Shown here piece by piece: positions 6,839 through 47,200 of a stretch of DNA of 58,832 bases (within the stretch, counting starts at the first letter, position 1; each line of letters begins with the position of its first letter). Both the position numbers and the translations under genes were made by a program. The notes under the pieces were generated by a model. The model ran no database searches and was not told the DNA's origin. It worked only from the letters and a program-made list of their open reading frames with translations. Source of the DNA: a bacterium (GTDB lineage Bacteria; Patescibacteriota; UBA1384; JBDRDK01); NCBI GenBank assembly GCA_043820855.1, contig JBDRDK010000001.1, positions 1 to 58,832 of the forward strand. Reading direction: 5' to 3'.

Positions 6839-8439
6839 ATAGTTAATATATTAGTTAGTGAATAACCGGTCATTTCAGCAGGTTTTTTTATGTGAAGTAA
6901 GTCGAGTATAGTAGGTGCTAAGTCGGCTAGTACTCCGATTGGTTGACTATTCAGAAATTGATTAATTTGATTTTGGTCTGAAGGAATATTTTTTTTGTTT
7001 TGTGGGGTAATAAGTATTACTGGTACAGGATTAGTTGTGTGATCTTTGCTGATTTGACCGGTTTCAGCAGTATACATCTCTTCAGCATTTCCGTGGTCAG
7101 CTGTGATCAACATACAATACGAATTTTTAGTAGCATTATTAACTAATATCTTTAAAGCGGAGTCAGTAGCTTCAACAGCTTTTACAGCAGCATCAAAATT
7201 TCCAGTATGACCTACCATATCCGGATTAGCAAAGTTTATTATAATAAACTGATGTTTGTGAGTATCTAAAGCTTTCCCAGCTTTTTTGACAATTTTAAAT
7301 ACACTCATTTCAGGTTTCAAGTCATATGTTGCAACTTTGGGCGATGGCACCAATATACGATCTTCGTTTTGAACCGGATCTTCTTTGCCCCCATTTAAAA
7401 AATATGTAATATGAGCATATTTTTCAGTTTCTGCAATATGTAACTGTTTCATTCCAGCTTGGGAGATAAGTTCTGGTAAGGTATTGATAATAGGTTGAGG
7501 TGGGAATATAATGGGGAAATCAAAGTGTTGATGGTATTTGATAAAAGAAATTAGGTTTAATTTTTTGTATGGGTTAGTATTAAATTGTTTTATTTGTTTG
7601 TCATAAAATGACTTTACTAATTGAACCATTCGATCTTCGCGAAAATTAAAAAATATAATACAATCCTCGTCATCTATCTTACCAAGCGGTTGGTTGTTTT
7701 CGTCGACAATTACTGTAGGACTAATAAATTCATCATTTAGATCTTTTTGATAGGCTTTTTGAATAGCTTCGTAGGCAGTTGTTGCATATTCTCCCATACC
7801 ATCAGCAATAGCTCGGTAAGCTGCTTCAGTCCTTTTCCAGCGACTATCCCGATCCATCGCATAATATCGCCCAATTACACTGCAAATTTTTCCAACACGG
7901 GATACGCGAGCTTTATCTTCGATTTTTTTTATATCTGTCAAAGCGATTTTGGGAGGAGAGTCTCTGCCGTCAGTAATAAAGTGAATACAGGTTTCGGGTG
8001 AACCGTTGTGACTTATCAAGCTTAACAAGGCTATAAGATGATCTATATGACTGTGTACGCCACCCTGACTAACTAGACCTATGAGGTGAATCTTTTTTTT
8101 GGTTTTTTTAGCTTTGTGGCAAGCATCAACCAAAATAGAGTTTCGAAAAAGACTGTTATCAAATATTGCATTATTTACACGAGCCAAACTTTGCCAAATT
8201 ACACGGCCAGCCCCAATATTGTAATGACCAACTTCAGAATTTCCTACTTCTCCCCAGGTCAGACCGACTTCTTCACCAGCCGCAGAAATACTACAGTGCG
8301 GATAATTAGTTAGATAATGGTCATAATTTGGTTTATGAGCTTTATTGATAGCATTACCAACTTTATTAGGGCTTATACCCCAACCATCCAAAATTAACAA
8401 AACCACCCCTCTGTATTTAGTAGAATCAAATTCAGTCAT
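6835..8439 (-). CDS. gpmI: 2,3-bisphosphoglycerate-independent phosphoglycerate mutase
   Basis: LILDGWG, GNSEVGH, SQGGVHSH, ITDGRDS, GRYYAMDRD, FFNFREDR, AETEKYAHITYF, NFANPDMVGHTGN, ITADHGNAE, HTTNPVP; 4-nt ATGA overlap with the next gene. Confidence 0.9.
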   Translation of the reverse strand: MTEFDSTKYRGVVLLILDGWGISPNKVGNAINKAHKPNYDHYLTNYPHCSISAAGEEVGLTWGEVGNSEVGHYNIGAGRVIWQSLARVNNAIFDNSLFRNSILVDACHKAKKTKKKIHLIGLVSQGGVHSHIDHLIALLSLISHNGSPETCIHFITDGRDSPPKIALTDIKKIEDKARVSRVGKICSVIGRYYAMDRDSRWKRTEAAYRAIADGMGEYATTAYEAIQKAYQKDLNDEFISPTVIVDENNQPLGKIDDEDCIIFFNFREDRMVQLVKSFYDKQIKQFNTNPYKKLNLISFIKYHQHFDFPIIFPPQPIINTLPELISQAGMKQLHIAETEKYAHITYFLNGGKEDPVQNEDRILVPSPKVATYDLKPEMSVFKIVKKAGKALDTHKHQFIIINFANPDMVGHTGNFDAAVKAVEATDSALKILVNNATKNSYCMLITADHGNAEEMYTAETGQISKDHTTNPVPVILITPQNKKNIPSDQNQINQFLNSQPIGVLADLAPTILDLLHIKKPAEMTGYSLTNILTI

Positions 8440-8441
8440 GA

Positions 8442-9743
8442 TTATTTTTTATAATTTGGCAACGTTGAAATACCTGCAAAAGCTGATTTTTCTGTTAGTT
8501 CAATCTCTATCTGGAGAAGTCTATTATATTTCGCAATTCTTTCGCTTCGTGTAAGAGAACCAGTTTTGATCTGTCCACATCCTATACCAACTGCTAAATC
8601 TGCAATATAAGTATCTTCAGTTTCACCCGACCTATGAGAAATTATTTGAGAATAACGGTTTTCTGTGGCGATCTCTACTGTTTTTAATGTTTCAGTTAAA
8701 GTACCTATCTGATTAGTTTTAATTAATATTGAATTTGCTATATTTTGTGTAATTCCAAAATTAAGTTTTGCTGGATTTGTAGCAAATATATCATCTCCTA
8801 CTATTTGCACCTTGTTTTTTAATTCATTTGTTATGTCTTCCCAGCCATTTTTGTCATCTTCGGATAGGGGATCTTCAAGTGAAATAATTGGAAATGCTTT
8901 TAATAATTCACGGTACATATTTATCATCCCGTCAGTATTTAGTGTTTGGGTACCCCTCTCAAATAAATAATTGCCATCTTTATAAAAAGTATTTGCTGCT
9001 ACATCCAAAGCTAAATAAATATCCTTTCCAGGTATTAATTTGGTATCTTCTATTGCTTGCATGATTAAAACAAAAGCTTCTTTATTGGAGGCTAGATTTG
9101 GTGAGAATCCGCCCTCATCACCGACCCCAGTAGGTAGATTCTGATTTTTTAGTAATTCATGTAGCGCGTTAAATACTCTTGATCCCCACTCCAAAGCTTG
9201 GTTGAAACTGCTAGCCCCACCAGGAATTATCATGTATTCCTGAATATCTAAATTATTGTCTGCATGAACCCCGCCGTTAATAATATTCATCATTGGTGTT
9301 GGAATAAGGAAGTCTGATACTTTTTTACCAAGTTTTAAGGAAAGATATTTGTATAGTGGTATATCTAAACTGTTTGCCGCAGCTCTACTAACAGCCAGAG
9401 ATACAGACAATATTGCATTTGCACCGAGACGTGATTTATTTTTAGTATTATCAAGCTCTATCATTATCTGATCAATTTTACTTTGCTCTTCGATATCTAC
9501 GCCCTGTAATATTCGAGCTATTTTTTGGTTTACATTGTTTACAGCTTTTTTTACTCCTTTACCGGAATATCGACTGTTGTCTCCATCTCTAAGCTCTAAA
9601 GCTTCTTCTTTACCTTTTGATGCACCAGAAGGTACCATGGCTATACCCGATATATCATCATCACACATTACTGTGGTTTCTAATGTTGGTACACCACGAG
9701 AATCTAAAACCTCTCGGGATTTAATAGTTTTTATTTTACTCAC
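8442..9743 (-). CDS. eno: enolase (phosphopyruvate hydratase)
   Basis: MSKIKTIKSREVLDSRGVPTLE..., SGETEDT, IKTGSLTRSERIAKYNRLLQIE; typical 433 aa. Confidence 0.95.
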   Translation of the reverse strand: MSKIKTIKSREVLDSRGVPTLETTVMCDDDISGIAMVPSGASKGKEEALELRDGDNSRYSGKGVKKAVNNVNQKIARILQGVDIEEQSKIDQIMIELDNTKNKSRLGANAILSVSLAVSRAAANSLDIPLYKYLSLKLGKKVSDFLIPTPMMNIINGGVHADNNLDIQEYMIIPGGASSFNQALEWGSRVFNALHELLKNQNLPTGVGDEGGFSPNLASNKEAFVLIMQAIEDTKLIPGKDIYLALDVAANTFYKDGNYLFERGTQTLNTDGMINMYRELLKAFPIISLEDPLSEDDKNGWEDITNELKNKVQIVGDDIFATNPAKLNFGITQNIANSILIKTNQIGTLTETLKTVEIATENRYSQIISHRSGETEDTYIADLAVGIGCGQIKTGSLTRSERIAKYNRLLQIEIELTEKSAFAGISTLPNYKK

Positions 9744-10809
9744 TACTCTTCTCCTTTATTGTGGTTTTTAGTTTATTGATTATATCAACGGGATATGGAT
9801 CGCACGCGTTTAAGATTGCTAAATAATAACTGACTAGGTCGCCTAAGTAAATCAGGGCTGTAGCTTCAACTAGCGGCGAATCGGACACAAAGTCAGCAGA
9901 AATTACCTCTATAGATATTTGTTTGGATTTGAGGGTTTTTTGAAAAAATTCCTGACGCAGCTTAGATTTGGGATGATTTAATTTGGATTGCAGTATAATA
10001 AAAGCCAACTTATCTTTTAATTCTGTTGGAAAATCTAAGCCGACAAGACTATTATGGCTTGATTCTGGTATTATTTCAGCGTATGCAGCAGATTTAGCAT
10101 TTTCATTTACCTGGGTTTTCCATCTTACAGCAACGCTTTCCAAAAATTCAGTGCCGTAAATTATCGGAATTTTGCCATATAGTTTTTGAGCTAGCTTTTT
10201 TGCACGATTTTTTGGGGCTGGAACGTCTCGGTTAAGTTTAATGTGTTGATTTTTCAACATAGAGAGTGTGGTATTTAGATCTTGTTCAGCGATATCAATA
10301 ATATTTAATTTTTTTAAAATTCCAATTACTGATATTAATAAATAACCTAGAGCAGCTCTAGGTGGAGATTTATAAGCAAAACGATAATAAGGTACCCGAT
10401 ATTTTAATGCTAATTTTTCCAACTCCCCGCCCGTAGTAACAGCCACTAACTTTGCGCCTCGTTTGTAAGCTTCAACAAAACCATCAGTAACTTCTTCGGT
10501 GTTGCCGGAATAGCTTATAGCAATAACTAATGTTCTGTCATCTACAAATTCTGGAATTCCATAATTATGGTGAGTGTGTATGGGTATTTCACTGGTTTTT
10601 AGTGTAAGACCTCGGGCTAGCTCGCCGCCAATACCTGATCCACCCATACCAAGTATTATTACTTTATTGGCTTTTAAGTAATATGAAGGCAATACTAATC
10701 TATTGATTTCTGTCCATGTATTTTCAAATTGGTCGGGTAGTTCACTAATATTTTTGTATAGATCCGAGGGATCTAATTGTTTGTATATACTTAAATCATC
10801 AAGATTCAT
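9736..10809 (-). CDS. bifunctional phosphoglucose/phosphomannose isomerase (SIS-domain PGI/PMI family)
   Basis: SIS motif ILGMGGSGIGGE, ISYSGNTEE; about 350 aa, typical of the short archaeal/bacterial PGI/PMI family; SD CAGGAG before the ATG; 8-nt overlap with eno. Confidence 0.8.
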   Translation of the reverse strand: MNLDDLSIYKQLDPSDLYKNISELPDQFENTWTEINRLVLPSYYLKANKVIILGMGGSGIGGELARGLTLKTSEIPIHTHHNYGIPEFVDDRTLVIAISYSGNTEEVTDGFVEAYKRGAKLVAVTTGGELEKLALKYRVPYYRFAYKSPPRAALGYLLISVIGILKKLNIIDIAEQDLNTTLSMLKNQHIKLNRDVPAPKNRAKKLAQKLYGKIPIIYGTEFLESVAVRWKTQVNENAKSAAYAEIIPESSHNSLVGLDFPTELKDKLAFIILQSKLNHPKSKLRQEFFQKTLKSKQISIEVISADFVSDSPLVEATALIYLGDLVSYYLAILNACDPYPVDIINKLKTTIKEKSSE

Positions 10810-11325: not shown

Positions 11326-12018
11326 ATGACAATTATCATGCTAAAAAAACTTTGGGAATTTATTAGGTTTATTGTGATTTTTCTACTCTTTTTCGGGTTG
11401 ATTTATGGGGTTTTGAATTACCCAGCACTTTCTAATTATATGTCACATTATCAAGAAAGAGGTGAACATGTTGTTAATTTGCACAATAAAAATATTTTTA
11501 CTGAAGAAGAAGCTAAAACAATTCCCAGTTCTCCAGAAAATCACTTAGTTATACCGGTGTTACATATTGATGTGCCCATAATCTGGGAAAGTAAAGAAAG
11601 TGAGATACTTAAAAATCTAAAAGACGGTGTAGTTCGATTTCCAAATACTGCATTTCCGGGTGAGATAGGTAATGTGTTTATAGTTGGTCACTCGTCAAAT
11701 TGGTGGTGGGATAAAGCTAAATATAATAGTATTTTTGCAGCACTCGGTAGGCTTAAAAAAAATGACGAGATACTAATTAACTACAAAGACCAGCAGTTTA
11801 TATATCAGGTAATCGGTAGTTCGGTTGTGATGCCTGATCAAACTGAAGTTTTGGAAAGTAGTGATAACAGTATTATTAGTTTAATGACGTGTACCCCAGT
11901 CGGTACAAACTGGAAGCGATTAGTAGCAACAGCAAAGCAGGTTTGGCCAGAACCTAATACAAATCAAATAAAAGACGATTTAAGTCCTAACGTAAATAGT
12001 TTGCCAAAGATCCGTTAA
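11326..12018 (+). CDS. sortase family transpeptidase (start may be the ATG at 11338)
   Basis: N-terminal TM; catalytic triad context VGHSS (His), LMTCTP (TLxTC Cys) and KRLVAT (Arg). Confidence 0.85.
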   Translation: MTIIMLKKLWEFIRFIVIFLLFFGLIYGVLNYPALSNYMSHYQERGEHVVNLHNKNIFTEEEAKTIPSSPENHLVIPVLHIDVPIIWESKESEILKNLKDGVVRFPNTAFPGEIGNVFIVGHSSNWWWDKAKYNSIFAALGRLKKNDEILINYKDQQFIYQVIGSSVVMPDQTEVLESSDNSIISLMTCTPVGTNWKRLVATAKQVWPEPNTNQIKDDLSPNVNSLPKIR

Positions 12019-13382
12019 CGGATAGAACCAAATCTTAGCACCCCATTTTTTAGTAATAACAACTCGGAATAATCTTTAGAGAACTCATATTTTGTATCTA
12101 TATCAATATTTGTTATTTTTGTGGCATGTCCCGATAAATCTGATAAAGTTAATTCATTATTGGAGAAAAAGTATATATTATATTGATTAAAGAAGAAGTT
12201 TGATTCATTTATTGGATGACTTAATCTCCTAAGGATATAATTTTCCTCTGGTTGATTAAAAATATCTTTGTTATTTTTTTGATATATCCATAGTTCGTTG
12301 TTTGTATAATATGTGAGTGCCAGTTTTTCACCAAATTCAAGCCAGTTACGGTCATTTGTCCAATTAAAGTTTTGTACTTGTTTATCTAAAAGCACTAAAT
12401 TTCTATCATCATAAATATATAGATCATTGTTTTTATTTAGTATGGAGAACTGTTTATCTTTTGAAACCTTTAATTTACTAGGTGAAGCTATATCTAACTT
12501 ATCTTCTATAGTTTTTATATAATAATTATTAAAGTTGATTTGAAGTATTTGATTTTTATCGTAAACGTTTTGAATAGCATATATATAGGAATTTAAGTAA
12601 AAAGCAACAATATTTTCTGCAATTTTTGCGGATTGTTGATTTGTAATATTGTAAGAGAGCAAATTGTCTCCCGACCGTATTATTATTGTATTTTTATTGA
12701 TTCCCAAATCATCGATTTTTTCAATAGATAACTGCTGGTTCAAGTCATAATAATTTCCGGTCTTCCAATTTAGCACATAGTATTTCTGTTCGGACTTAAT
12801 AATTAAATGATCGCTGTTTATGGGTTCGATGATTCGTGATTTTAAATTAAGATCGTTGATTTGATGAATACTTTTGAGCTTGTTGTCTTTCATGTCTAAA
12901 GTACCGATATTTAATCCTTGATTATCGTATAGTACAAAACAGTTGTTTTTATCTTTTATTTTAAAATCTATGATTTTTTTGGGACCAATTTCATCAAAAT
13001 TCTGACTTTCTAAGAGTAGTAAAACATCTTTTATTTTAGTACCCAAACCTTCATAAATTGTTATAGTTTTGCTGATGGTTTTGTAGCCGTCTTTTTTGAT
13101 TTCTAAATCGTACTTTCCTGGTAATAAATATGAAACCCTTAACGGTGTACGACTGCCTTTATATTCTTTTTCTAAAAATACGTCAACAGATCTTGGGTTG
13201 GTTTGTACATATAACAAACCAGTTTTTTGTATTTTTCCAGTTTTAAAATTATAAGCATAACCCGATGCCCTGAAAATTAAAAAACTGGCAACTATGACAA
13301 ATCCGATAATCACGATCAGCCAAACAGAAATATTTAGTAGTAATCTTTTACTTTTTTGTATTTTTTGAAAAAATTTTTTCAT
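12015..13382 (-). CDS. membrane-anchored PEGA-domain protein
   Basis: N-terminal TM, then a PEGA-like module (VDVFLEKEYKGSRTPLRVSYLLPGKYDLEIKKDGYKT) and a long repetitive beta-rich region. Confidence 0.65.
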   Translation of the reverse strand: MKKFFQKIQKSKRLLLNISVWLIVIIGFVIVASFLIFRASGYAYNFKTGKIQKTGLLYVQTNPRSVDVFLEKEYKGSRTPLRVSYLLPGKYDLEIKKDGYKTISKTITIYEGLGTKIKDVLLLLESQNFDEIGPKKIIDFKIKDKNNCFVLYDNQGLNIGTLDMKDNKLKSIHQINDLNLKSRIIEPINSDHLIIKSEQKYYVLNWKTGNYYDLNQQLSIEKIDDLGINKNTIIIRSGDNLLSYNITNQQSAKIAENIVAFYLNSYIYAIQNVYDKNQILQINFNNYYIKTIEDKLDIASPSKLKVSKDKQFSILNKNNDLYIYDDRNLVLLDKQVQNFNWTNDRNWLEFGEKLALTYYTNNELWIYQKNNKDIFNQPEENYILRRLSHPINESNFFFNQYNIYFFSNNELTLSDLSGHATKITNIDIDTKYEFSKDYSELLLLKNGVLRFGSIR

Positions 13383-30950: not shown

Positions 30951-31023
30951 TCAAAAAACTTGACAAATTATCATATCTCTGATAGTTTATAAAGTTAAAT
31001 TAATTATAAAATTGAGGAGTGAA

Positions 31024-32934
31024 ATGTTAGATTTACTTAGAAATATTAGTTGGGACTGGTCTCAAGGGATAAAAGATTATTCTAATCATCTTAAGAGTCA
31101 AGTCCAATCCAAAGCTTTTCGCAATCTGTCAGTGCTTGCAATAGCTTTTTTTGTGTTTGTACAAGCTTTGGTTCCTGGTAGTGCTAGTGCTTTAAATCCA
31201 AAGTTCAATTTTATGACCGGAGATTATGAACTTTTACGAGGTGCTAACTCTACTGCCGGGGAACAAAATTGGCATGATCCAATATCTGGCAAAATCGGTG
31301 ATGTTATTTCCTGGAATGTGTATTATCATAACGGCGTTGAACAAACAGTAGCTCACAATACTACAATACAAGTCCAACTTCCCGTTGAATCTAGTACTCA
31401 ATTACAACTACAAGGAAAATTATGGGCTGATAACGCTGACCTGGTAACTGATACGGGTATTGTTAATTTAACTGCAGCCGGTAAAATTCGCTATATTCCC
31501 AACTCAACACTTTGGTATCCGAATCGATCTACAACTCCTCAGAGTTTATCTGATGGAATTACTGAAGCGGGAGTAAACCTAGGTGATATTATAGGTTGTT
31601 GGCCATATGCCGGATTCGTAGTATTTCAAACCGAAATAGTATCTTCTGTAGTTTCTATTGATATTGATAAAAAAGTCGGAAATTCCAGCGAAGATCCACA
31701 TACGCAAAACTGGTATAAGGAAAATACTGCGAAACCTAATCAAACATTGGCTTATCGATTACATATAAAGAATACTGGTAACGATACTATCCAAAATTTA
31801 AAAGTTCGAGACATCTTACCAGAAAATGTAAGCTATCTAACTGGTACTACCAAAGCTTATACCAGTGAAACTGGTGCTATTGGTCAAACATTACCTGATG
31901 GTATAGTATCTAGCTCCGGAATTAATCTAGGTACATACGAACCAGGTGATGTAAATTCTGGCTTTATTGTATTTCAAGTTAAAGTTGCAAATCTTACAAA
32001 TCCCGGAACTTATACACTTACAAATACTGCCGAATCTTGGGCAGATAATGTTGCTAAAAAACAAAGTACAGCAACTACTATAGTAAATGTAGGAGCTGCA
32101 GAAATCCAAAAATCTAAAACTGCTTTTAATCAAAATCAAAACCAAGACGCAACTAAAGTAGTTGCCAAAGCAGGGGATATAATTAATTACAATTTATGGA
32201 CTAAAAATAACGGTAAAGCAGTTGCAAAAAATTTTGTAGTAAATGATGATATTACTGATATTTTAGAATATGCAGATATAACTAATATGTATGGTGGAGT
32301 GATGAATGGTAAAACCATCACATATCCAGCAGAAGATATATTAGCTGGTAAAACTATTAATAAAACATTCACAACAAAAGTAAAAAGCCCTATCCCTTCC
32401 AATCCTCAAACAGGTAAATCCTTTGATTTCAAAATGGAAAACATCTATGGTAACTCTATAATTGTCAACATCTTTAAATCTCAAATAGGTTATCATTTCG
32501 ATAAAAAAGTTCGAAATGTTAGCCGAGGTCAAGCTAATTTTGTTGAAAAAGTTGAAGCTACATATGGTGAAGAATTGGAATACAAAATTGATGTAGCTAA
32601 TACAGGAAATACTGCCTTAACCAATGTATTGCTTTGGGACAAACTACCTCAATATCAAAAATTGATTTCAGGTAGTGTTAAATTTTACGGACCAAATGGT
32701 GGATCCTTACAACTAGATGACAGTATTGTTGGTACTGGCGTACAATTACAAAACTTTAATGCTGGATTAAGTGGTTATATTGTATTCAAAATTCGAATAG
32801 CTTCATGTCCTCCAGCTGGTTCATACGATTTAATCAATACTGCATATGCAAATACTCATGAAATTGGTCAAATTACTGATACTGCTCAAATTCACTTAAC
32901 AGTATATCCACCAATAGAACCACCAATTAAATAA
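31024..32934 (+). CDS. secreted repeat-domain (DUF11-like) surface protein
   Basis: SD GAGGAG sits before the ATG at 31024. Signal-anchor ends in ...PGSASA. Repeats of the type HIKNTGNDTIQNLKVRDILPENVSY and DVANTGNTALTNVLLWDKLPQ. The N-terminal module is paralogous to the next gene. Confidence 0.75.
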   Translation: MLDLLRNISWDWSQGIKDYSNHLKSQVQSKAFRNLSVLAIAFFVFVQALVPGSASALNPKFNFMTGDYELLRGANSTAGEQNWHDPISGKIGDVISWNVYYHNGVEQTVAHNTTIQVQLPVESSTQLQLQGKLWADNADLVTDTGIVNLTAAGKIRYIPNSTLWYPNRSTTPQSLSDGITEAGVNLGDIIGCWPYAGFVVFQTEIVSSVVSIDIDKKVGNSSEDPHTQNWYKENTAKPNQTLAYRLHIKNTGNDTIQNLKVRDILPENVSYLTGTTKAYTSETGAIGQTLPDGIVSSSGINLGTYEPGDVNSGFIVFQVKVANLTNPGTYTLTNTAESWADNVAKKQSTATTIVNVGAAEIQKSKTAFNQNQNQDATKVVAKAGDIINYNLWTKNNGKAVAKNFVVNDDITDILEYADITNMYGGVMNGKTITYPAEDILAGKTINKTFTTKVKSPIPSNPQTGKSFDFKMENIYGNSIIVNIFKSQIGYHFDKKVRNVSRGQANFVEKVEATYGEELEYKIDVANTGNTALTNVLLWDKLPQYQKLISGSVKFYGPNGGSLQLDDSIVGTGVQLQNFNAGLSGYIVFKIRIASCPPAGSYDLINTAYANTHEIGQITDTAQIHLTVYPPIEPPIK

Positions 32935-38125: not shown

Positions 38126-39954
<1,829 letters not shown>

Positions 39955-40018
39955 TTTGTGCTATCATATAAAGGACAGGGGATAGATATTATCCTTAATT
40001 TAAGATATCAGGAGGGGT

Positions 40019-40927
40019 TTGGACGATCAAACAAACCAAACTAGCTCAAGCGCTGAGATACAACCCCCATCTCGAAAATGGGATATTTTAGATTCTACTA
40101 CCAGCGATATTACACCAAAACCTAGTGCAACAAGTGCAACAAGATCACCAGAATTAATAAATCAGGATTTATTATCAGAATCAGAAATAAATGTTCGTTC
40201 TCCTAAATACGCTGAATTACTAAAAGAATTAAGCTCGGCGATACAACCAAATTCAACTCAAACAACTCGAACTACTGAAACGCTTCAACCTCAAGTTTCG
40301 CAACCAGAAATTCAAACCATTACTCCCGAAACAGCCCCAAATCCATTTCAAATACTTAAAAACAACTTAGGTCAAATTGATCCCGCATATTCTGCTGATT
40401 TGGATCAATTACAGATCCGCGCTCGAGAACAAGGCTTGAATACGCAAGTAATTAAACCTATCATTCCCAGTATTTTAGATCTAAGTAATCACACTATCAC
40501 CGAAATTAAACAAGCTCAATCAGAACAACAATCCCAAAACCCAACTGGATTAAGTTCAATTGCCGAAACAGTAATCCCAAGATTATTGACTGGTTCGCTT
40601 AGTCCACAAATTCAAACAGCTTGTGATGAAATTACTAGAATTTATCACATTGAACCGGCTACACAAACTACTAACCCAAAACTGGAAATACAAAAAACAC
40701 CACCAACAAGCCAAACTCCTGAAGAAGAAATTCAAATCCTAGGTGGTGAGATTATTCGTTTACAGGGTGATAAAGAATCACTTGAAAAACAATTATCAGA
40801 TACTCAGATTAGCAATACTGATTTGGAAAATCAATTTAAAGATTCTAAAGAAAAAGCCAAAACAGCACAAGCTCAATATACTGAAAATTTTGAAAAATTA
40901 CCCTCAAATAAAAGATTAGCTGCCTAA
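40019..40927 (+). CDS. Q/T/S/P-rich low-complexity protein with C-terminal coiled coil; TTG start
   Basis: SD CAGGAGGGG immediately upstream; 302 aa; no TM or signal peptide; first gene of a tightly packed six-gene block. Confidence 0.55.
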   Translation: MDDQTNQTSSSAEIQPPSRKWDILDSTTSDITPKPSATSATRSPELINQDLLSESEINVRSPKYAELLKELSSAIQPNSTQTTRTTETLQPQVSQPEIQTITPETAPNPFQILKNNLGQIDPAYSADLDQLQIRAREQGLNTQVIKPIIPSILDLSNHTITEIKQAQSEQQSQNPTGLSSIAETVIPRLLTGSLSPQIQTACDEITRIYHIEPATQTTNPKLEIQKTPPTSQTPEEEIQILGGEIIRLQGDKESLEKQLSDTQISNTDLENQFKDSKEKAKTAQAQYTENFEKLPSNKRLAA

Positions 40928-40929
40928 AT

Positions 40930-41388
40930 ATGAGTCAAAATCAAGTTATTAATTTAGAAAATTTAATCTCTCAATTACAAAAAAATTTAAAGGATATTTA
41001 TATAGTTGAAAAAGAGATTATTCGAATTGACCAATTACTTATTGCTGGTAAAAATACGGAACAGGTGATTCAAAAAAAACTAGAGGAAGTGAACCAAAAA
41101 TTACAAAATTACCATACCCAACAAACCAACCTACAAAAGATCCACGGTGAATCATTAAGTCAAGGTTTCAAAGATTTGGCTATAAATCAATTTAATAACT
41201 TACAAACTTCATGGCAATCTCAAAATCCTCAAGCTCTAAGTATAATACTTAAACAAATTAGCAAATATACTCACTTGTCTAAACATTTTTATATGCTAAA
41301 AAATCGTACACTTAGGTTAATAGGTATGGATAGATATTTCAACTATCATTATATAGATATTAATATTCCAGAATTATTAAAAATATAA
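40930..41388 (+). CDS. coiled-coil hypothetical protein
   Basis: 2-nt gap from the previous stop; heptad-like Q/K/L-rich sequence; 152 aa. Confidence 0.55.
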   Translation: MSQNQVINLENLISQLQKNLKDIYIVEKEIIRIDQLLIAGKNTEQVIQKKLEEVNQKLQNYHTQQTNLQKIHGESLSQGFKDLAINQFNNLQTSWQSQNPQALSIILKQISKYTHLSKHFYMLKNRTLRLIGMDRYFNYHYIDINIPELLKI

Positions 41389-41389
41389 C

Positions 41390-41734
41390 ATGGAACAAAA
41401 AGAAACATTTATCGGAAAAAAAGACGAATTAATCTCATTAATTAGAAAGTCAAAATTACCTGATTCTGAAAAGGAAGCTTGGCTAAATCTCCTAGAAGAA
41501 ATGTTAGAGCATGAAATTCAAGAATTTATTGACATACTAAAAGACGAAGAGGGTAATTTACAAAGACTGGAACTAAAATATCAACAAAAGATAAAAAAGA
41601 TTAAAGTTGATTTCAATGAAAAATGGCAAAATTTTATGAGTCAAGCTGAAAACGAGATAGACAAGAGTCAAAAAAACAAAATCCAACAAAACGAAGCTCA
41701 GGAATTAGAAATGCTACGTCAGCAATTAAAATAA
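41390..41734 (+). CDS. coiled-coil hypothetical protein
   Basis: 1-nt gap from the previous stop; E/K/Q-rich helical sequence; 114 aa. Confidence 0.55.
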   Translation: MEQKETFIGKKDELISLIRKSKLPDSEKEAWLNLLEEMLEHEIQEFIDILKDEEGNLQRLELKYQQKIKKIKVDFNEKWQNFMSQAENEIDKSQKNKIQQNEAQELEMLRQQLK

Positions 41735-41737
41735 ATT

Positions 41738-44260
41738 ATGGATGTAGGAAATATTATAAATTTGGTAGGCATAGGATTATTACTAATTGCGGGAGTGATA
41801 ATTATCTTCACTATGAGTAAATTTCTTAAATCATACCTTTTACAAAAAAAAGAAACTAAGAAATTTCAAGACCGAACTCTGTTTTTAGTTCAAGTCCCTA
41901 AATATTCTGGTACAAAAGAAGAACAAAACACAAGTAGTCGCGACCTGTCAATATTATGGACTGGCGTTATGGAACAGTTTTTATCAAGTGTTACTGGAAT
42001 ATATGAAGGAGATTGGCAACATGCTATATGGGGACAAGAATATGTCAGCCTGGAGATAGTATCTAAAGGAGGTCAAATAAGTTTTTATGTATCTTGTCCA
42101 GGGCATTTATCGTCTTTAATTGAAAAACAAATTCACAGCTTTTTTCATGGAGCACAAGTAGAAAAAGCACCCAACTACAATTTATTTGACAAAATTAATC
42201 CAGCAAATTATCTAAACCATACTACTTCTGCACAACTCGGGCTTGCCCGATCATTTATTTATCCGATTCGTACCTACAAAGACCTTGATCACGATTCATT
42301 AAATAATATTACAACCGCCTTAAGTAAATTGGGTAAAGACTCGAGCGCTGCTATCCAAATGATGATCCGTCCCAGTGTATCAAAGTGGCAGAAACAATGT
42401 GAAGAGAAAATTAAAAGTATATATGAAGACAAAAAAACTACCGGGATACAAAATATCGTTAAAGAAGTGGGACAAGCTGCTTTTAACCCACAAAAAAGCG
42501 ATAGCAAGTCTGATATCAAGGCCCCGCCCACAATAACTGCCAACAAAGAACAAGAGATTAATCTAATTCAAAAAAAAGCTTCAAAGGTTGGTTTTGATAC
42601 CAAGATACGTTTACTTGTTGTATCTAATGATTTGAACTTAGCCAAGTCCAACTTACAAAATCTATTAAGTTCATACGCCCAATTCACTGACCAAGGGGGG
42701 AACCGATTACAAAAATTAAAGTATCCTTTCCGCAACGTTCAAACTGAGGTATTTGACTTTGTACTTAGAAGGTTTGGTAATCCTAACTTTGCCACAATAT
42801 TAAACACTGAGGAATTGGCAACCCTTTATCATTTCCCAAACAAAAATATTGCAACTCCTAACATAAAATGGTTGGCTGCAAAAACTGCAGCTGCTCCAGT
42901 AAACACACCAACAGAGGGTAGATTGCTTGGTGAAAATATTTATCGTGGGGAAAAACAAAAGGTTTACATAAAGGATGCGGATCGGTTACGACATTTATAC
43001 TGCATAGGTAAAACCGGTGTAGGTAAAACTACTTTATTTACAAATATGATTATTGACGACATTGTTGAAGGAAAGGGTGTATGTTATATCGATCCACACG
43101 GTGATGCAGCAGAAACCATCTTGCAAAACATCCCTAAAGAACGGGCTGAGGATGTTATTTATTTTGATCCTGGTGACACTTCTAGACCTATGGGATTAAA
43201 TTTACTCGAGTATCAAAAACCCGAACAAAAAGATTTTTTAGTACAAGAAGCTACTTCAATTTTCTATAAATTATTTGATCCAAATAAAACTGGTATTGTG
43301 GGACCACAGTTTGAACACTGGTTAAGAAATGCAGCATTAACACTCATGTCCTATCCAGAAGGCGGAACATTAATAGAAATTCCTAGATTGTTTACTGATA
43401 AAAAATTTGAACAAGAACGGTTAAAACACGTTCGAGATCCAATGGTACGTGCTTTTTGGGAAAAACAGCTAAAACAAACTTCTGATTTCCATAAATCAGA
43501 AATGCTTAATTATTTTGTTTCGAAATTCGGTCGATTCATGACAAATAATATGATGCGTAATATTATCGGACAGACCAAATCAGCGTTTGATTTCCGTGAA
43601 GTTATGGATTCCGGAAAAATATTAATCCTTAATTTATCCAAAGGTAAGTTAGGCGAAGTTAATGCTGAACTCCTCGGTCTAATCACTGTAGCAAAATTAG
43701 CTATGGCTGCTTATTCACGAGCAGATATTCCCGAAGATCAAAGAAAACCGTTTTATCTGTATGTAGATGAATTCCAAAACTTTACTACATCTGACTTTTC
43801 TTCAATTTTATCCGAAGCAAGAAAATACCAACTATCTTTAAATATCACCAATCAGTACATAGAACAGTTAGATGAAAAAATTAGAAATGCAGTCTTTGGC
43901 AATGTGGGCAGTATTATCTCTTTCCGTATAGGCGTAAGAGATGCTGAATTCCTCGAAAAAGAATTTACCCCTGTCTTTAGTCAAGAGGATCTAGTTGACA
44001 TAGACAAATATAATGCATATATTAAGTTATTAATTGACGGTGCTGCATCTAGTCCTTTTAGTATCAAAACTATCGCACCCAAACCCCCACAGTCACAACA
44101 AATTTACGAGGCCATTCAAAAAATTTCTAAATTAAAGTATGGGAAAAATCAACAAACAGTAGATGAAGAAATTAGAAAGAGATCAGCAATAGAACAGGTT
44201 GTCAAAGAGTTTGGATCAAGTAGTTTATCCAAGGAACCAACACCTAACCAACAACAATAA
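41738..44260 (+). CDS. membrane-anchored VirD4/TraD/TrwB-like (type IV coupling protein-like) P-loop NTPase, paralog 1
   Basis: N-terminal TM (aa 5-25), then a module of about 380 aa of unknown function. Walker A GKTGVGKTT (43008-43031) followed by IDPHGD. Walker B FYLYVDEFQNF. EARKYQLSLNITNQY...GNVGSIISFR, TraG-D_C-like. Confidence 0.8.
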   Translation: MDVGNIINLVGIGLLLIAGVIIIFTMSKFLKSYLLQKKETKKFQDRTLFLVQVPKYSGTKEEQNTSSRDLSILWTGVMEQFLSSVTGIYEGDWQHAIWGQEYVSLEIVSKGGQISFYVSCPGHLSSLIEKQIHSFFHGAQVEKAPNYNLFDKINPANYLNHTTSAQLGLARSFIYPIRTYKDLDHDSLNNITTALSKLGKDSSAAIQMMIRPSVSKWQKQCEEKIKSIYEDKKTTGIQNIVKEVGQAAFNPQKSDSKSDIKAPPTITANKEQEINLIQKKASKVGFDTKIRLLVVSNDLNLAKSNLQNLLSSYAQFTDQGGNRLQKLKYPFRNVQTEVFDFVLRRFGNPNFATILNTEELATLYHFPNKNIATPNIKWLAAKTAAAPVNTPTEGRLLGENIYRGEKQKVYIKDADRLRHLYCIGKTGVGKTTLFTNMIIDDIVEGKGVCYIDPHGDAAETILQNIPKERAEDVIYFDPGDTSRPMGLNLLEYQKPEQKDFLVQEATSIFYKLFDPNKTGIVGPQFEHWLRNAALTLMSYPEGGTLIEIPRLFTDKKFEQERLKHVRDPMVRAFWEKQLKQTSDFHKSEMLNYFVSKFGRFMTNNMMRNIIGQTKSAFDFREVMDSGKILILNLSKGKLGEVNAELLGLITVAKLAMAAYSRADIPEDQRKPFYLYVDEFQNFTTSDFSSILSEARKYQLSLNITNQYIEQLDEKIRNAVFGNVGSIISFRIGVRDAEFLEKEFTPVFSQEDLVDIDKYNAYIKLLIDGAASSPFSIKTIAPKPPQSQQIYEAIQKISKLKYGKNQQTVDEEIRKRSAIEQVVKEFGSSSLSKEPTPNQQQ

Positions 44261-44265
44261 ATAAC

Positions 44266-46926
44266 ATGACAAATTATTTAGGATTATTACCAACAATTAT
44301 AATTACCCTGGCTCTTGTAGTCGGATCTTTATCTTTGAGTTATTTTCTGCAAGTTAAAAAAAGCAGACAAGCCCTGAAAACAAAGAAATATAGCTTACTG
44401 ATGATTTCGGTTCCAAGAGAAAACGAAAAATCAGCACTCGCTGCTGAACAAGTATTTGCTAGTTTACATGGAATATTTCGCGACCCAGAACAATTAAAGA
44501 AAAGCGGGGATATTCAAGAGTGGTTAAGTTTTGAGGTGGTCTCATATCAACAACACATAGAATTTTATGTATATACTCCTGAAGAATACAAGGAATTTGT
44601 AGAAGGACAGATATTTGCACAATACCCAAATATCGATATCAGAGAAGTAAAAGATGATTATACTCATCGAATAAAACAAGATAAAGTATTTGGTACAGCA
44701 GAACTTGTATTAAATAAAAATGAGATTTTTCCAATCAAAACTTTTACTGATTTTGAAGTCGATCCACTGGCGGGTATTACAGCAGCGATGAGTAAAATTC
44801 AAAGCGGTGAACAAGCCTGGATGCAAATATTGTTAAAACCAGTTGAAGATGATTGGCAGAATAAAGGTATAAAATATGTTGAAGCTGTTAAGGCTGGGAA
44901 AAATCCCAAACCACCTATGTTTTTTGAAGGATTACTTAGTTCGTTTACAGATTTTGGGAAAGATTTAGTCCAAGCTGCGATAAATCCAGAAAAAGCCGCT
45001 GAACCAGCCAAAGAAAAAGAAACTCCGAAATTATCAGGACCAGTTGATTCGGGATTGGCAGGAATTGAAGAAAAGATAACCAAACTAGGTTATAAAACAA
45101 TAGTTAGGCTGTTTATTATTTCAGATAGTGAATTCAAAATTCAAAATCGGGTCTTAGCTATAGCTGGATCTTTTAAACAATTTAACCTAAGTAACTCTAA
45201 CGGATTTAAGGTAGAAAATTTCAGTATTAATAATATAAATGAATTTCAAAATTATCAATTACGATTATTTAATAAAGACGGTTATGTATTGAATATTACT
45301 GAGCTTGCTAGCTTATATCACTTTCCGCATGTTTCTGTAGAAACCCCACATATAAGTTGGACTGGTTCGAAAAAGGGAGAGCCACCAGGCAACTTACCCA
45401 CACAGGAAAATACTCGGGCAGATGAACTAACGATTTTTGCCAAAACCGATTTTCGTGGTACTGGTACAGAATTTGGAATAAAAGCTGATGATCGCAGAAG
45501 ACATATATATACTATAGGTAAAACTGGAACAGGAAAATCTACAATGCTAGTAAATATGATTATGTCAGATATTTACGCAGGAAAAGGCGTAGGCGTGGTA
45601 GATCCGCACGGAGACCTAATTGATGATTTATTGGACTACATACCAAAAGAGCGTCACAAAGATGTACTATTATTTGATCCTGCTGATCGTAAATATCCAG
45701 TAGGTTTTAATTTGTTAGAAAGCGTTGATCCGGATATGAAAAGCATTGTAGCTTCGGGACTGATCGGAATTTTCAAAAAGATTTGGGTAGATTCTTGGGG
45801 TCCAAGATTAGAATACATACTACGAAATACTATACTTGCATTGCTAGATTATCCTGGGTCCACAATGCTTGGAATACTAAAGATGCTTTCAGATCCTAAT
45901 TTTCGGGCCCGGGTAGTTGAAAAAATCAAAGATCCAGTAATTAAAGATTTTTGGGAAAAGGAATTTGAAGGATATACGGATAGTTTTAGAGCAGAAGCCA
46001 TCAACCCAATACAAAATAAAGTTGGTCAGTTTCTGTCTTCGGCCACTATTAGAAACATACTAGGACAAGAACAGAGCAGTTTTACTATGTCTGATGTTTT
46101 AGATAATCAGAAAATATTCTTAATAAATTTATCTAAAGGCAAAATGGGTGAGGACAACAGTGCTCTACTTGGCGCTATGATAATTACCAAGATACAACTT
46201 ACTGCAATGCAAAGAGTATATACCCCCGAAAAAGAACGTAAAGACTTTTATTTGTATGTGGATGAGTTTCAGAACTTTGCAACAGAAGCTTTTTCTGGGA
46301 TACTATCCGAAGCTCGCAAATATCGCCTTAACATTATACTAGCAAACCAATATATAGCCCAAATCCCAGAAGCAGTACGTGAAGCGATTTTCGGAAATAT
46401 AGGTACACTGATCGCTTTCAGGGTTGGTCCTTCTGATGTGGATATGCTCACCAAGGAGTTCAGCCCAGTTTTTGATGAAAACGATCTAGTTAATCTAGAT
46501 AAATATAATACATATGTAAAAATGGCTATCGACGGAGTAACAAGCCCCGCGTTTTCTGCTATAACATTACCCCCCTTTGCTAGTAGAACTGCTTCAAAGG
46601 ATATCGTAATAAAACAGTCAAGAGATAAATTTTCAAAAGAAAAAGAGACAGTTGAAAAACAGATCGTTGATTGGAGTCAAAAAGAAAGTTTACCTCCAGC
46701 TTCACTAATAGCTAAAATTCAAAAAAAAGACCAGGAAAAAGAAAATAAAACCGAGATAAAACAATTCGAAAAAATCGGTAAAAACGAATACCGCAGATTC
46801 AAAGATTCTACTGAAAAAGGTTGGTACATCCAGGTAGAACCACACGAAAGTCGTATAAAACAAGAACAAGTAAATATATCTACCAATACTGACTCATCTA
46901 TATTAGAAAAAATATTAAAAAACTAA
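44266..46926 (+). CDS. membrane-anchored VirD4/TraD/TrwB-like P-loop NTPase, paralog 2
   Basis: Same architecture as paralog 1: TM, N-module, GKTGTGKST (45517-45540), VDPHGD, FYLYVDEFQNF, EARKYRLNIILANQY...GNIGTLIAFR, plus a K/E-rich tail. Confidence 0.8.
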   Translation: MTNYLGLLPTIIITLALVVGSLSLSYFLQVKKSRQALKTKKYSLLMISVPRENEKSALAAEQVFASLHGIFRDPEQLKKSGDIQEWLSFEVVSYQQHIEFYVYTPEEYKEFVEGQIFAQYPNIDIREVKDDYTHRIKQDKVFGTAELVLNKNEIFPIKTFTDFEVDPLAGITAAMSKIQSGEQAWMQILLKPVEDDWQNKGIKYVEAVKAGKNPKPPMFFEGLLSSFTDFGKDLVQAAINPEKAAEPAKEKETPKLSGPVDSGLAGIEEKITKLGYKTIVRLFIISDSEFKIQNRVLAIAGSFKQFNLSNSNGFKVENFSINNINEFQNYQLRLFNKDGYVLNITELASLYHFPHVSVETPHISWTGSKKGEPPGNLPTQENTRADELTIFAKTDFRGTGTEFGIKADDRRRHIYTIGKTGTGKSTMLVNMIMSDIYAGKGVGVVDPHGDLIDDLLDYIPKERHKDVLLFDPADRKYPVGFNLLESVDPDMKSIVASGLIGIFKKIWVDSWGPRLEYILRNTILALLDYPGSTMLGILKMLSDPNFRARVVEKIKDPVIKDFWEKEFEGYTDSFRAEAINPIQNKVGQFLSSATIRNILGQEQSSFTMSDVLDNQKIFLINLSKGKMGEDNSALLGAMIITKIQLTAMQRVYTPEKERKDFYLYVDEFQNFATEAFSGILSEARKYRLNIILANQYIAQIPEAVREAIFGNIGTLIAFRVGPSDVDMLTKEFSPVFDENDLVNLDKYNTYVKMAIDGVTSPAFSAITLPPFASRTASKDIVIKQSRDKFSKEKETVEKQIVDWSQKESLPPASLIAKIQKKDQEKENKTEIKQFEKIGKNEYRRFKDSTEKGWYIQVEPHESRIKQEQVNISTNTDSSILEKILKN

Positions 46927-46935
46927 TTAATTATT

Positions 46936-47169
46936 GTGAGAGAAAACTATAGTTTGTGGGAAAAATTAATTATTTTAGCAGCCGCAGTACTGATTATTTG
47001 GGGTGTGGTTTACTTGATTTTAAAACATCAGGGAGATGAGCCACAAAATACCCGGTCCAATACTGCAGAAGAGGCCCAAGATTCAACTGAAAATACAGAT
47101 ACAGATAATACCCCAGAAGAAGGCGAGATATCAACCCAAGACACAGATCAAGAAAGTATACCTTTTTAA
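46936..47169 (+). CDS. small single-TM protein with acidic tail; GTG start
   Basis: TM LIILAAAVLIIWGVVYLIL followed by a D/E/T-rich tail; no obvious SD. Confidence 0.4.
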   Translation: MRENYSLWEKLIILAAAVLIIWGVVYLILKHQGDEPQNTRSNTAEEAQDSTENTDTDNTPEEGEISTQDTDQESIPF

Positions 47170-47171
47170 TT

Positions 47172-47200
47172 TTGCTATTTAAGGAACTACTTGGTATAAT
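47172..47200 (+). promoter_or_regulatory. sigma70-type promoter (extended -10) for rbfA
   Basis: TTGCTA (47172-47177), 17-nt spacer ending TGg, TATAAT (47195-47200). Confidence 0.65.

Follow-up and report, generated by a model that had tools for sequence, protein, structure and literature searches.

What do two ATPases resembling the coupling proteins of conjugation systems do among the housekeeping genes of a patescibacterial genome? The question is raised by a 58,832-nucleotide stretch of contig JBDRDK010000001.1 (GenBank assembly GCA_043820855.1; Patescibacteriota, UBA1384), hereafter called the window, in which a block of six open reading frames (ORFs) occupies positions 40019–47169 of the + strand. 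The ORFs are separated by 2, 1, 3, 5 and 9 nt and encode g1 (40019..40927, 302 amino acids (aa), TTG start), g2 (40930..41388, 152 aa), g3 (41390..41734, 114 aa), ATPase A (41738..44260, 840 aa), ATPase B (44266..46926, 886 aa) and g6 (46936..47169, 77 aa, GTG start). A preliminary description of this DNA had reported six same-strand ORFs with gaps of 1–9 nt, encoding among others a Q/T/S/P-rich protein, two paralogous ATPases of 840 and 886 aa and a small transmembrane (TM) protein with an acidic tail, set among housekeeping genes; all of this was borne out, with coordinates exactly as claimed. On balance, we slightly favor the explanation that the block holds a vertically inherited pair of conjugation-type coupling motors, now domesticated, whose relatives serve as coupling proteins in monoderm (Tcp/MPF-FATA-like) conjugation.

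The family identity of the two ATPases was established by pairwise comparison, motif inspection and profile searches. A and B are 35% identical across ~820 aa (E = 2e-170), and both carry the motifs GKTGxGK[TS], DPHGD, FYLYVDEFQNF and GN.G..I.FR. These four stood as first described; a further motif, given as ARKY..L...NQY, was one residue off, the true spacing being ARKY-x7-NQY. Walker A lies at nt 43007–43033 in A (GKTGVGKTT) and at nt 45517–45543 in B, and Walker B at nt 43751–43783 in A (FYLYVDEFQNF) and at nt 46246–46278 in B, all on the + strand. The signatures GKTG[VT]GK[TS]T and YVDEF are kept in A, in B and throughout both clades of their homologues, and F[YF]LYVDEFQNF hardly varies among the sampled Patescibacteria sequences. 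With the catalytic Walker A and Walker B residues intact in both paralogues, A and B are predicted to be catalytically competent.

ATPase B matched the Pfam model TrwB_AAD_bind with E = 1.6e-10 (40.9 bits, cut-off 20.5) over aa 407–724. ATPase A scored 16.4 bits against the same cut-off of 20.5 and is taken as being of the type IV coupling protein (T4CP) type because of its 35% identity to B. TraG-D_C matched both proteins and DUF87 only below threshold, and partial NCBIfam matches to TraD, VirD4-like and CedD models fell far under the equivalog cut-offs. Among the sequences of the Protein Data Bank (PDB), only TrwB (the best match) and DotL were found. Neither A nor B had a Pfam match to CagE_TrbE_VirB or AAA_10, and their relatives showed AAA_10 below threshold only. 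Precomputed annotation of a protein identical to B lists PF26449 (DUF8128), PF10412 and PF12696, and PF26449 is likewise precomputed on the A orthologues of two related genomes; the N-domain assignment rests on these hits and on homology, since PF26449 was apparently absent from the local Pfam copy, in which neither ATPase matched it. An N-terminal DUF8128 followed by a TrwB_AAD_bind/TraG-D_C ATPase was thus found in one polypeptide. A search of the contig index for the exact sequence of ATPase B gave no record. Both ATPases also matched the phage protein family phrog_5156 over its full length (E = 3e-91 for A and 7e-87 for B; profile positions 21–816 of 824).

The ATPases had initially been regarded as part of an orphan operon, a view that does not survive for the ATPase core. 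At least 6,753 homologues, a lower bound, were counted in a large protein collection, essentially all with precomputed PF26449 and PF10412 and from metagenome-assembled genomes (MAGs) of Patescibacteria or Berkelbacteria, and a profile search with the N-domain recovered 4,664 DUF8128 representatives at 50% clustering. Named homologues in NCBI carry the product name 'type IV secretion system DNA-binding domain-containing protein', and a published census of such proteins exists (see below). As judged by sequence, A and B are members of a catalogued, functionally uncharacterized T4CP family, to which the window adds one member.

Domain architecture was examined using AlphaFold2 (AF2) models. The model of B (predicted local distance difference test score (pLDDT) 73.7) shows, in order and on the + strand, a TM helix (aa ~7–39, nt 44284–44382), an alpha/beta domain corresponding to DUF8128 (aa 42–350, nt 44389–45315), a disordered linker, a P-loop motor (aa 388–770, nt 45427–46575) with an all-alpha insertion modeled at moderate confidence (aa 489–600), and a C-terminal helical and small beta region. 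ATPase A has the same order over 41738..44260 (+), that is, an N-terminal TM anchor, DUF8128 and a TrwB/VirD4-type P-loop motor. Hydropathy and AF2 both predict one N-terminal TM helix in each protein, and a lysine-rich stretch after the helix places the bulk of the protein, by prediction, in the cytoplasm. The earlier reading of the pair as duplicated, membrane-anchored VirD4-like ATPases is upheld, TrwB being the best solved relative and TrwB_AAD_bind and TraG-D_C the matching families.

When full-length B was compared with the PDB by Foldseek, VirB4/TrwK chains came first, aligned end to end over 835–1,033 columns with low template-modeling (TM) scores; on the model, the low scores over so long an alignment reflect a different domain arrangement. 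The T4CPs DotL, TrwB and Cag-beta, together with HerA, matched the C-terminal half only, with target-normalized scores (TMt) of ~0.5 for TrwB and DotL. Folded alone, the N-domain (pLDDT 77.8, predicted TM-score (pTM) 0.77) gave 14 significant matches, all of them TrwK/VirB4 chains (E = 1.7e-6 to 6e-4; query-normalized score (TMq) 0.37–0.44), and below these the search fell sharply to ferredoxin-like noise. A sequence profile of the N-domain found nothing among PDB sequences, VirB4 included. The architecture is best described as a VirB4-like N-domain, an assignment with moderate support from the models, fused to a VirD4-like motor.

This arrangement sets A and B apart from each of the known systems that they resemble. 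They share with the VirD4/TrwB/TraD coupling proteins a membrane-anchored motor of the FtsK/HerA superfamily, the all-alpha insertion and intact Walker A and B motifs, but T4CPs usually have two TM helices, whereas A and B have one predicted helix each and ~300 extra residues (DUF8128) between helix and motor, and they form a paralogue pair among housekeeping genes with no relaxase or type IV secretion system (T4SS) gene in the window. With VirB4/TrwK they share a length of ~800–900 aa and the succession of an N-terminal alpha/beta domain and a C-terminal RecA-like ATPase, but they differ from VirB4 in their VirD4-like motor motifs and all-alpha insertion, in the lack of a sequence match and in TM-scores of only ~0.4. 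FtsK/SpoIIIE and TcpA, which are DNA pumps for segregation and for some Gram-positive conjugation, belong to the same ATPase superfamily and are also membrane-anchored; compared with FtsK, A and B are without the four-TM N-domain, and no gamma (winged-helix, KOPS-binding) domain was detected.

The junction between the N-domain and the motor is also a point at which the gene can be divided. In loci L062 (9863–12817), L069 (2547–5339), L076 (3969–6911) and L078 (2434–5508), and similarly in L067, the B-type gene is split at one same point into a TM plus DUF8128 ORF of ~420–440 aa and a motor ORF of ~500–580 aa. Many DUF8128-only representatives of ~410–550 aa also occur in the protein library, and the split looks natural. 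Such split ORFs parallel TrsD and VirB4; TrsD has been described as remotely homologous to the N-terminal part of VirB4 (Quinonero-Coronel et al. 2025, PMC12102498).

We next consider whether the block is a resident of the chromosome or a mobile element. Two related genomes, GCA_042569105.1 (L084) and GCA_004196315.1 (L085), have the identical six-gene block between tgt and rbfA. The order rplA-rplJ-rplL-tgt ... rbfA-pheST is common to relatives whose B is 83–87% identical to that of the window, and tgt-A-B is retained in more distant lineages. Amino acid identities to the L084 and L085 orthologues are 0.38–0.39 for g1, 0.72–0.77 for g2, 0.82–0.85 for g3, 0.86–0.88 for A, 0.82–0.87 for B and 0.45–0.52 for g6. 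The ratio of nonsynonymous to synonymous substitution rates (dN/dS) against the same orthologues ranges from 0.03 to 0.40 over the six ORFs, indicating that all six are genuine genes under purifying selection. For A and B it is 0.03–0.06 (A, 0.03–0.04), like that of pheS and tighter than those of rplJ, tgt and rbfA. Together, these comparisons of sequences and gene order establish that the pair has been inherited vertically, among housekeeping genes and strongly constrained.

Full-length homologues carried by plasmids of Bacillus and of haloarchaea and by Bacillus phages, described below, would be compatible with an integrated conjugative or mobilizable element or a prophage remnant. Conserved synteny, composition and selection contradict this origin, to which we attach next to no probability: the tgt–rbfA position is the same in relatives, the GC content of the block is like that of its flanks, dN/dS is at housekeeping level, and sequences of the candidate phyla radiation (CPR) form their own clade apart from the homologues of mobile elements. 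As previously stated, none of the window ORFs scanned was found to encode VirB4, VirB6, a relaxase, a pilin or an integrase, and the window showed no phage genes either. An integrase or relaxase with mating genes, odd composition and variable presence, by which integrative and conjugative elements are recognized, were likewise not observed there. That the block is not a conjugative element had been proposed at the outset and is supported.

The distribution of A and B beyond this clade was examined within ±10 kb of the homologues. The 80 loci, from GTDB species genomes, came from Saccharimonadia, Berkelbacteria, Dojkabacteria, Peregrinibacteria, Peribacteria, Gracilibacteria, Nomurabacteria and Levyibacteriota. 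A and B occur together in only 11 distant loci, all with a B at least 49% identical to that of the window, whereas Saccharimonadia and other lineages have a lone B-type gene. Where both are present, the genes are close: 5 nt separate them in the window, and in L006, L009 and L072 they abut or overlap. Two layouts recur among the paired loci. In the first, tgt is followed by a small low-complexity ORF, A, in some cases a ~175-aa protein, and B; the second consists of a ~540–600-aa ORF, A, a ~175-aa protein, a ~340-aa sigma70_r4/HARE-HTH protein and B. Most of the paired loci have secDF downstream on the opposite strand. In a simple neighbor-joining (NJ) tree the A types form one clade (97/100), single copies all group with B, and the sub-trees inside A and B are congruent. 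A and B thus appear to be separate clades inherited together, an ancient paralogue pair. CPR sequences stand apart from the plasmid and phage homologues with a support of 59/100.

The origin of the architecture is illuminated by those plasmid and phage homologues. Searches by tblastn returned full-length homologues, N-domain included, at 20–25% identity, with alignments running from aa ~60–90 to aa ~770–880 of ATPase B. Plasmid carriers comprise many small Bacillus plasmids and haloarchaeal plasmids, including pHV1. A replication-relaxation family protein is encoded immediately behind the homologue in the case of the Bacillus plasmids, and then come a TcpE-family protein, further proteins of conjugal transfer and an ATPase of VirB4 size; on pHV1 the homologue comes after a 'transfer complex protein'. 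The DUF87/DUF8128 ATPase of the Bacillus Tcp-like plasmids (NZ_CP035190, NZ_OX419568) and phrog_5156 have the same full-length architecture as A and B; the plasmid copies are single genes with Tcp-type neighbors, whereas the CPR copies are chromosomal, paired and without those neighbors. A place in the coupling-protein position of a Tcp-like Gram-positive plasmid module argues that the ancestral job was conjugative coupling, and by this analogy such a role is very likely for the architecture as a whole. Descent from, or shared ancestry with, the coupling proteins of monoderm conjugation modules follows from the conjugative context of the plasmid homologues.

Phage homologues were found in Bacillus phage G (gp156; L091, 3908–6385), SPO1 (gp27.4; L087, 5770–8490) and its relatives, Geobacillus phage TP-84 (L088, 5848–8112) and phage 0305phi8-36. 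Phage G, SPO1 and TP-84 are lytic, and phrog_5156 is annotated as of unknown function. In phage G, gp156 adjoins gp155, a P-loop_TraG/AAA_10 ATPase annotated as VirB-like. The closest match outside Patescibacteria, at ~31% identity, lies at 8932–12591 of L090, from the Priestia megaterium 'plasmid' pFDU301A (NZ_CP045273.1, 1,081,311 bp), which has one annotated feature in the PLSDB gene table and a local GC content of 34%. The possibility that pFDU301A is a mislabeled CPR genome was considered and rejected, as the homologue is fragmented and its neighbors are not CPR-like.

How might a domesticated coupling motor work in its present setting? A and B would be anchored in the membrane by their predicted helices, with most of each protein in the cytoplasm, and by analogy with established knowledge of the family they would assemble into a ring like that of TrwB. 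Where both occur, the ring would probably be mixed, as suggested by the 5-nt spacing, the abutting or overlapping genes of L006, L009 and L072 and the congruent trees. Driven by nucleoside triphosphate hydrolysis, such a ring may deliver its substrate, of which DNA or nucleoprotein is the likeliest kind, to a channel in the envelope; the VirB4-like N-domain is a putative docking module. Tentatively, and with somewhat less than an even chance, this channel is the chromosomal T4SS of Patescibacteria, encoded elsewhere in the genome and acting in trans. Also in favor of the domesticated coupling motor, the T4SS cluster of Southlakia is without a recognizable coupling protein or relaxase (Wang et al. 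2023, PMC10633639).

Several observations weigh against this explanation. The likeness of the N-domain to VirB4 is moderate (TM-score ~0.4, no sequence signal), and the AF2 models were built from shallow alignments. No T4SS, relaxase or channel gene lies within the 58.8-kb window. The hetero-oligomer is deduced only from gene order and co-inheritance, and the many lineages with a single B-type gene within 10 kb suggest that B may act by itself. The tree, built by simple NJ, gives CPR monophyly a support of only 59/100. As regards a T4SS acting in trans, VirD4 of Agrobacterium is dispensable for pilus biogenesis, so that a non-essential coupling protein beside an essential T4SS is not in itself contradictory. 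In Southlakia the T4SS genes are essential and the t4cp homologue is not (PMC12102498, citing Wang 2023), which argues against an obligatory partnership of T4SS and T4CP.

The published census also bears on the question. VirB4 was reported in 2,417 of 3,035 Patescibacteria genomes (80%), and 5,713 VirD4-like T4CP homologues in 2,918 of the 3,035, with 148 of these homologues near virB4; relaxases numbered only 109 in the 3,035 genomes, and the authors state that exaptation of the T4CPs 'cannot be ruled out' (PMC12102498). Table S3 of that work, as far as it was available, uses two profiles, t4cp1 and t4cp2. In that part of the table, t4cp2 matches (62–64% coverage) are singletons or close pairs, with gene indices 83/85, 604/605, 273/276 and, twice, 324/330, while t4cp1 matches are single and lie elsewhere. 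The t4cp2 pairs are expected to be the A/B family, given that every CPR member tested scored above the TrwB_AAD_bind threshold. Equating the 5,713 T4CPs, or the 96% of genomes that carry them, with the A/B family was considered and rejected: with t4cp1 and t4cp2 mixed, as the available part of the table indicates, the 96% is an upper bound not wholly assignable to this family, a further point against the domesticated coupling motor. The existence and odd placement of T4CP-like genes in Patescibacteria is already on record; in the literature searched, we did not find the name 'DUF8128', nor a description of the A/B paralogy, the VirB4-like N-domain, the two-helix-turn-helix (two-HTH) and 175-aa partners or the link to Bacillus plasmids and phages.

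The first of these partners bears on what the motor may handle. In 48 of 83 loci, from several lineages (L001, 6873–7907; L011, 8788–9858; 46 more), the gene immediately before B encodes a protein of ~340–380 aa that carries a sigma-70 region-4 HTH at its N terminus and, in the middle, a HARE-HTH domain like that of RNA polymerase (RNAP) delta. Its HARE-HTH domain scored 41.2 bits against the RNAP-delta model (cut-off 42). In L024 the sigma70_r4/HARE-HTH region is in frame with the ATPase ORF; the two are fused, or the ORF was called too long. In Saccharimonadia the order is dprA-topA-(two-HTH protein)-B, next to ftsQ-murG-ftsW-mraY. The second partner, a family of ~170–187 aa (mid175), lies between A and B in L001 (6365–6871), L003 (7432–7992), L070 (9467–9979) and five more loci; its members are 45–84% identical between loci and share an invariant core, NYASKSKL...GD..KL...DG...KQIGP, and no relative was found in Pfam, NCBIfam, PHROG, PADLOC or the PDB. 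A tblastn search of the whole window with mid175 and the sigma70_r4/HARE-HTH protein returned nothing.

The two-HTH protein that precedes B in so many loci (48 of 83), together with the position of the Saccharimonadia B beside dprA-topA and ftsQ-murG-ftsW-mraY, would fit a chromosomal DNA translocase that was exapted from conjugation and works independently of any T4SS, moving DNA of the cell itself or DNA from outside across or along the membrane, in DNA uptake with ComEC and type IV pili, in segregation at division or in export to the host. It is in essence the chromosomal translocation or segregation machine proposed at the outset. Such a role is unlikely but deserves serious attention. The greater spread of T4CP homologues than of VirB4 in Patescibacteria genomes (2,918 against 2,417 of 3,035), their rarity near virB4, the non-essentiality of Southlakia t4cp, which it shares with comEC, and the housekeeping-level selection on A and B all speak for it. 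The adjacency to dprA, topA and division genes may, however, be inherited synteny in one class, and the window's own lineage lacks these neighbors. FtsK_SpoIIIE gave only a weak, sub-threshold match, to the P-loop of ATPase B (E = 0.002; 17.9 bits, cut-off 24), and no FtsK gamma-like domain was detected. In addition, the census figures, as far as Table S3 shows, include the t4cp1 profile and incomplete MAGs, and the case for a T4SS-independent translocase is built on sequence and gene context.

In its boldest form, this alternative would make A and B a core hetero-hexameric DNA or nucleoprotein translocase with VirB4-like docking and a VirD4-like motor, independent of any T4SS, domesticated from monoderm conjugation at or near the base of the sampled Patescibacteria and used for DNA import from or export to the host or for chromosome handling. 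We consider this rather improbable; if true, it would define a third, previously unrecognized branch of VirB4/VirD4 ATPases with a housekeeping role.

The four small proteins of the window's block are of a different kind from these partners. The g1 protein consists to 40% of Q, T, S and P, is predicted to be largely disordered with a C-terminal coiled-coil-like stretch, and evolves fast (dN/dS 0.26–0.28 against the L084 and L085 orthologues, at 5791–6657 and 5708–6580 of these loci); no family in Pfam or NCBIfam matched it above threshold. Its C terminus (40883–40927), LPSNK(x)[RK]LAA, is kept in all three orthologues despite 38–39% identity. The ssrA degradation tag recognized by ClpXP has a similar ...LAA end, and that of g1 may be a mark for regulated proteolysis. 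In g2 (dN/dS ~0.08) the N-terminal half is coiled-coil-like and the last ~50 residues are highly conserved, while g3, encoded 3 nt ahead of ATPase A, is helical and charged; each has only three other relatives in 5.8 billion clusters, from related genomes or short contigs. In g6, one TM segment (aa ~10–31) precedes a tail with 14 D/E against 1 K/R in 45 residues; the TM segment and a C-terminal ES/NIPF/I motif are conserved in L084 and L085, and matches in Pfam and NCBIfam were sub-threshold only.

None of g1, g2, g3 and g6 belongs to a family in Pfam, NCBIfam, PADLOC or PHROG, and no BLAST or HHalign relative of them was found among the A/B neighbors of distant loci. Two candidate relationships were rejected. 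A 25-residue BLAST hint (E = 0.015) that g1 is a degenerate sigma70_r4/HARE-HTH partner had an HHalign probability of 0.4%, and a relationship of g2 and g3 to DUF5663-like proteins or to mid175 had HHalign probabilities below 1%. The coiled-coil proteins had been proposed as dedicated partners of the motor, which does not hold across the family, as g2 and g3 are confined to a narrow clade and other lineages have different partners. Conserved and apparently expressed, g1–g3 and g6 are taken as clade-specific accessory or regulatory additions rather than conserved parts of the machine.

A variable set of small proteins beside a coupling-type motor also brings to mind effector export, in which A and B would be the receptor and motor for proteins leaving through a T4SS or another route, and g1–g3 and g6 would serve as adaptors or chaperones, or be substrates, in the manner of the Dot/Icm DotL complex. 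The effector T4CPs DotL (6sz9) and Cag-beta (8dol) rank with the best matches by structure and sequence, relaxases are near-absent in Patescibacteria (109 in 3,035 genomes), and small, fast-evolving proteins of the same operon vary by lineage, as adaptors and effectors often do. Protein export is nevertheless improbable as the function of the pair: g1–g3 and g6 are not similar to known adaptors such as IcmS/W and LvgA, the motor is extremely conserved whereas the supposed adaptors are not shared across lineages, and the conserved HTH partner of other lineages points to nucleic acid.

That same partner weakly resembles MzaA in its sigma70_r4 domain, and the PADLOC model mad8 matched both ATPase domains (E = 4e-15 and 4e-18) alongside weak matches to HerA defense proteins. 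An anti-phage defense ATPase of the HerA/MADS-like kind is, for all that, very improbable, since the PADLOC matches are confined to the generic P-loop core or to the HTH of sigma region 4, no further defense components lie nearby, and the family is near-universal, vertically inherited and conserved in a housekeeping context, unlike defense islands.

Returning to the domesticated coupling motor, its interest lies in the biology of its carriers. Patescibacteria make up a large share of bacterial diversity and live on other cells without nucleotide synthesis of their own, and a central question is how macromolecules are exchanged between them and their hosts. A and B are an obvious candidate for this traffic, being found in many lineages, constrained like an aminoacyl-tRNA synthetase within the clade and located away from the T4SS. 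The combination of a VirB4-like N-domain with a VirD4-like motor bears on the divergence of the two signature ATPases of T4SSs, and the plasmids and phages of Bacillus that carry homologues are genetically tractable settings for the function of this architecture.

The boundaries of the block are marked by less certain features. Upstream, AGGAGG at 40010–40015 lies four bases ahead of the TTG start of g1, and an intrinsic-terminator-like hairpin of six G-C pairs followed by a T-run stands after rplL (38812..38827, +), suggestive of the start of a transcription context comprising tgt and the block. Downstream, the block had been described as bounded by an independent rbfA promoter. The upstream bound, tgt, stands, and a promoter-like site is indeed present between g6 and rbfA (47172..47200, +; TTGCTA-17-TATAAT with a TG extension), where it suggests a likely downstream boundary; this is suggestive only, because the site is a consensus match and promoter-like sites in the region are not enriched over shuffled sequence (32 found, 36.7 expected).

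Two further features of the window were noted. At 3637–8439 (−), three tandem paralogous genes encode 2,3-bisphosphoglycerate-independent phosphoglycerate mutases of 538, 537 and 534 aa, all with iPGM_N and Metalloenzyme domains, adjoining enolase (8442–9743) and a bacterial-type phosphoglucose isomerase (9736–10809); a triplicated glycolytic enzyme is unusual for an apparently reduced genome. Surface-type proteins are also encoded, namely a 640-aa DUF11/DUF7507-repeat protein (31012–32934), a 526-aa fn3-containing protein (860–2440) and a 455-aa PEGA-domain protein (12015–13382), together with a sortase (11326–12018), in keeping with the lifestyle of an epibiont rich in cell-surface proteins.

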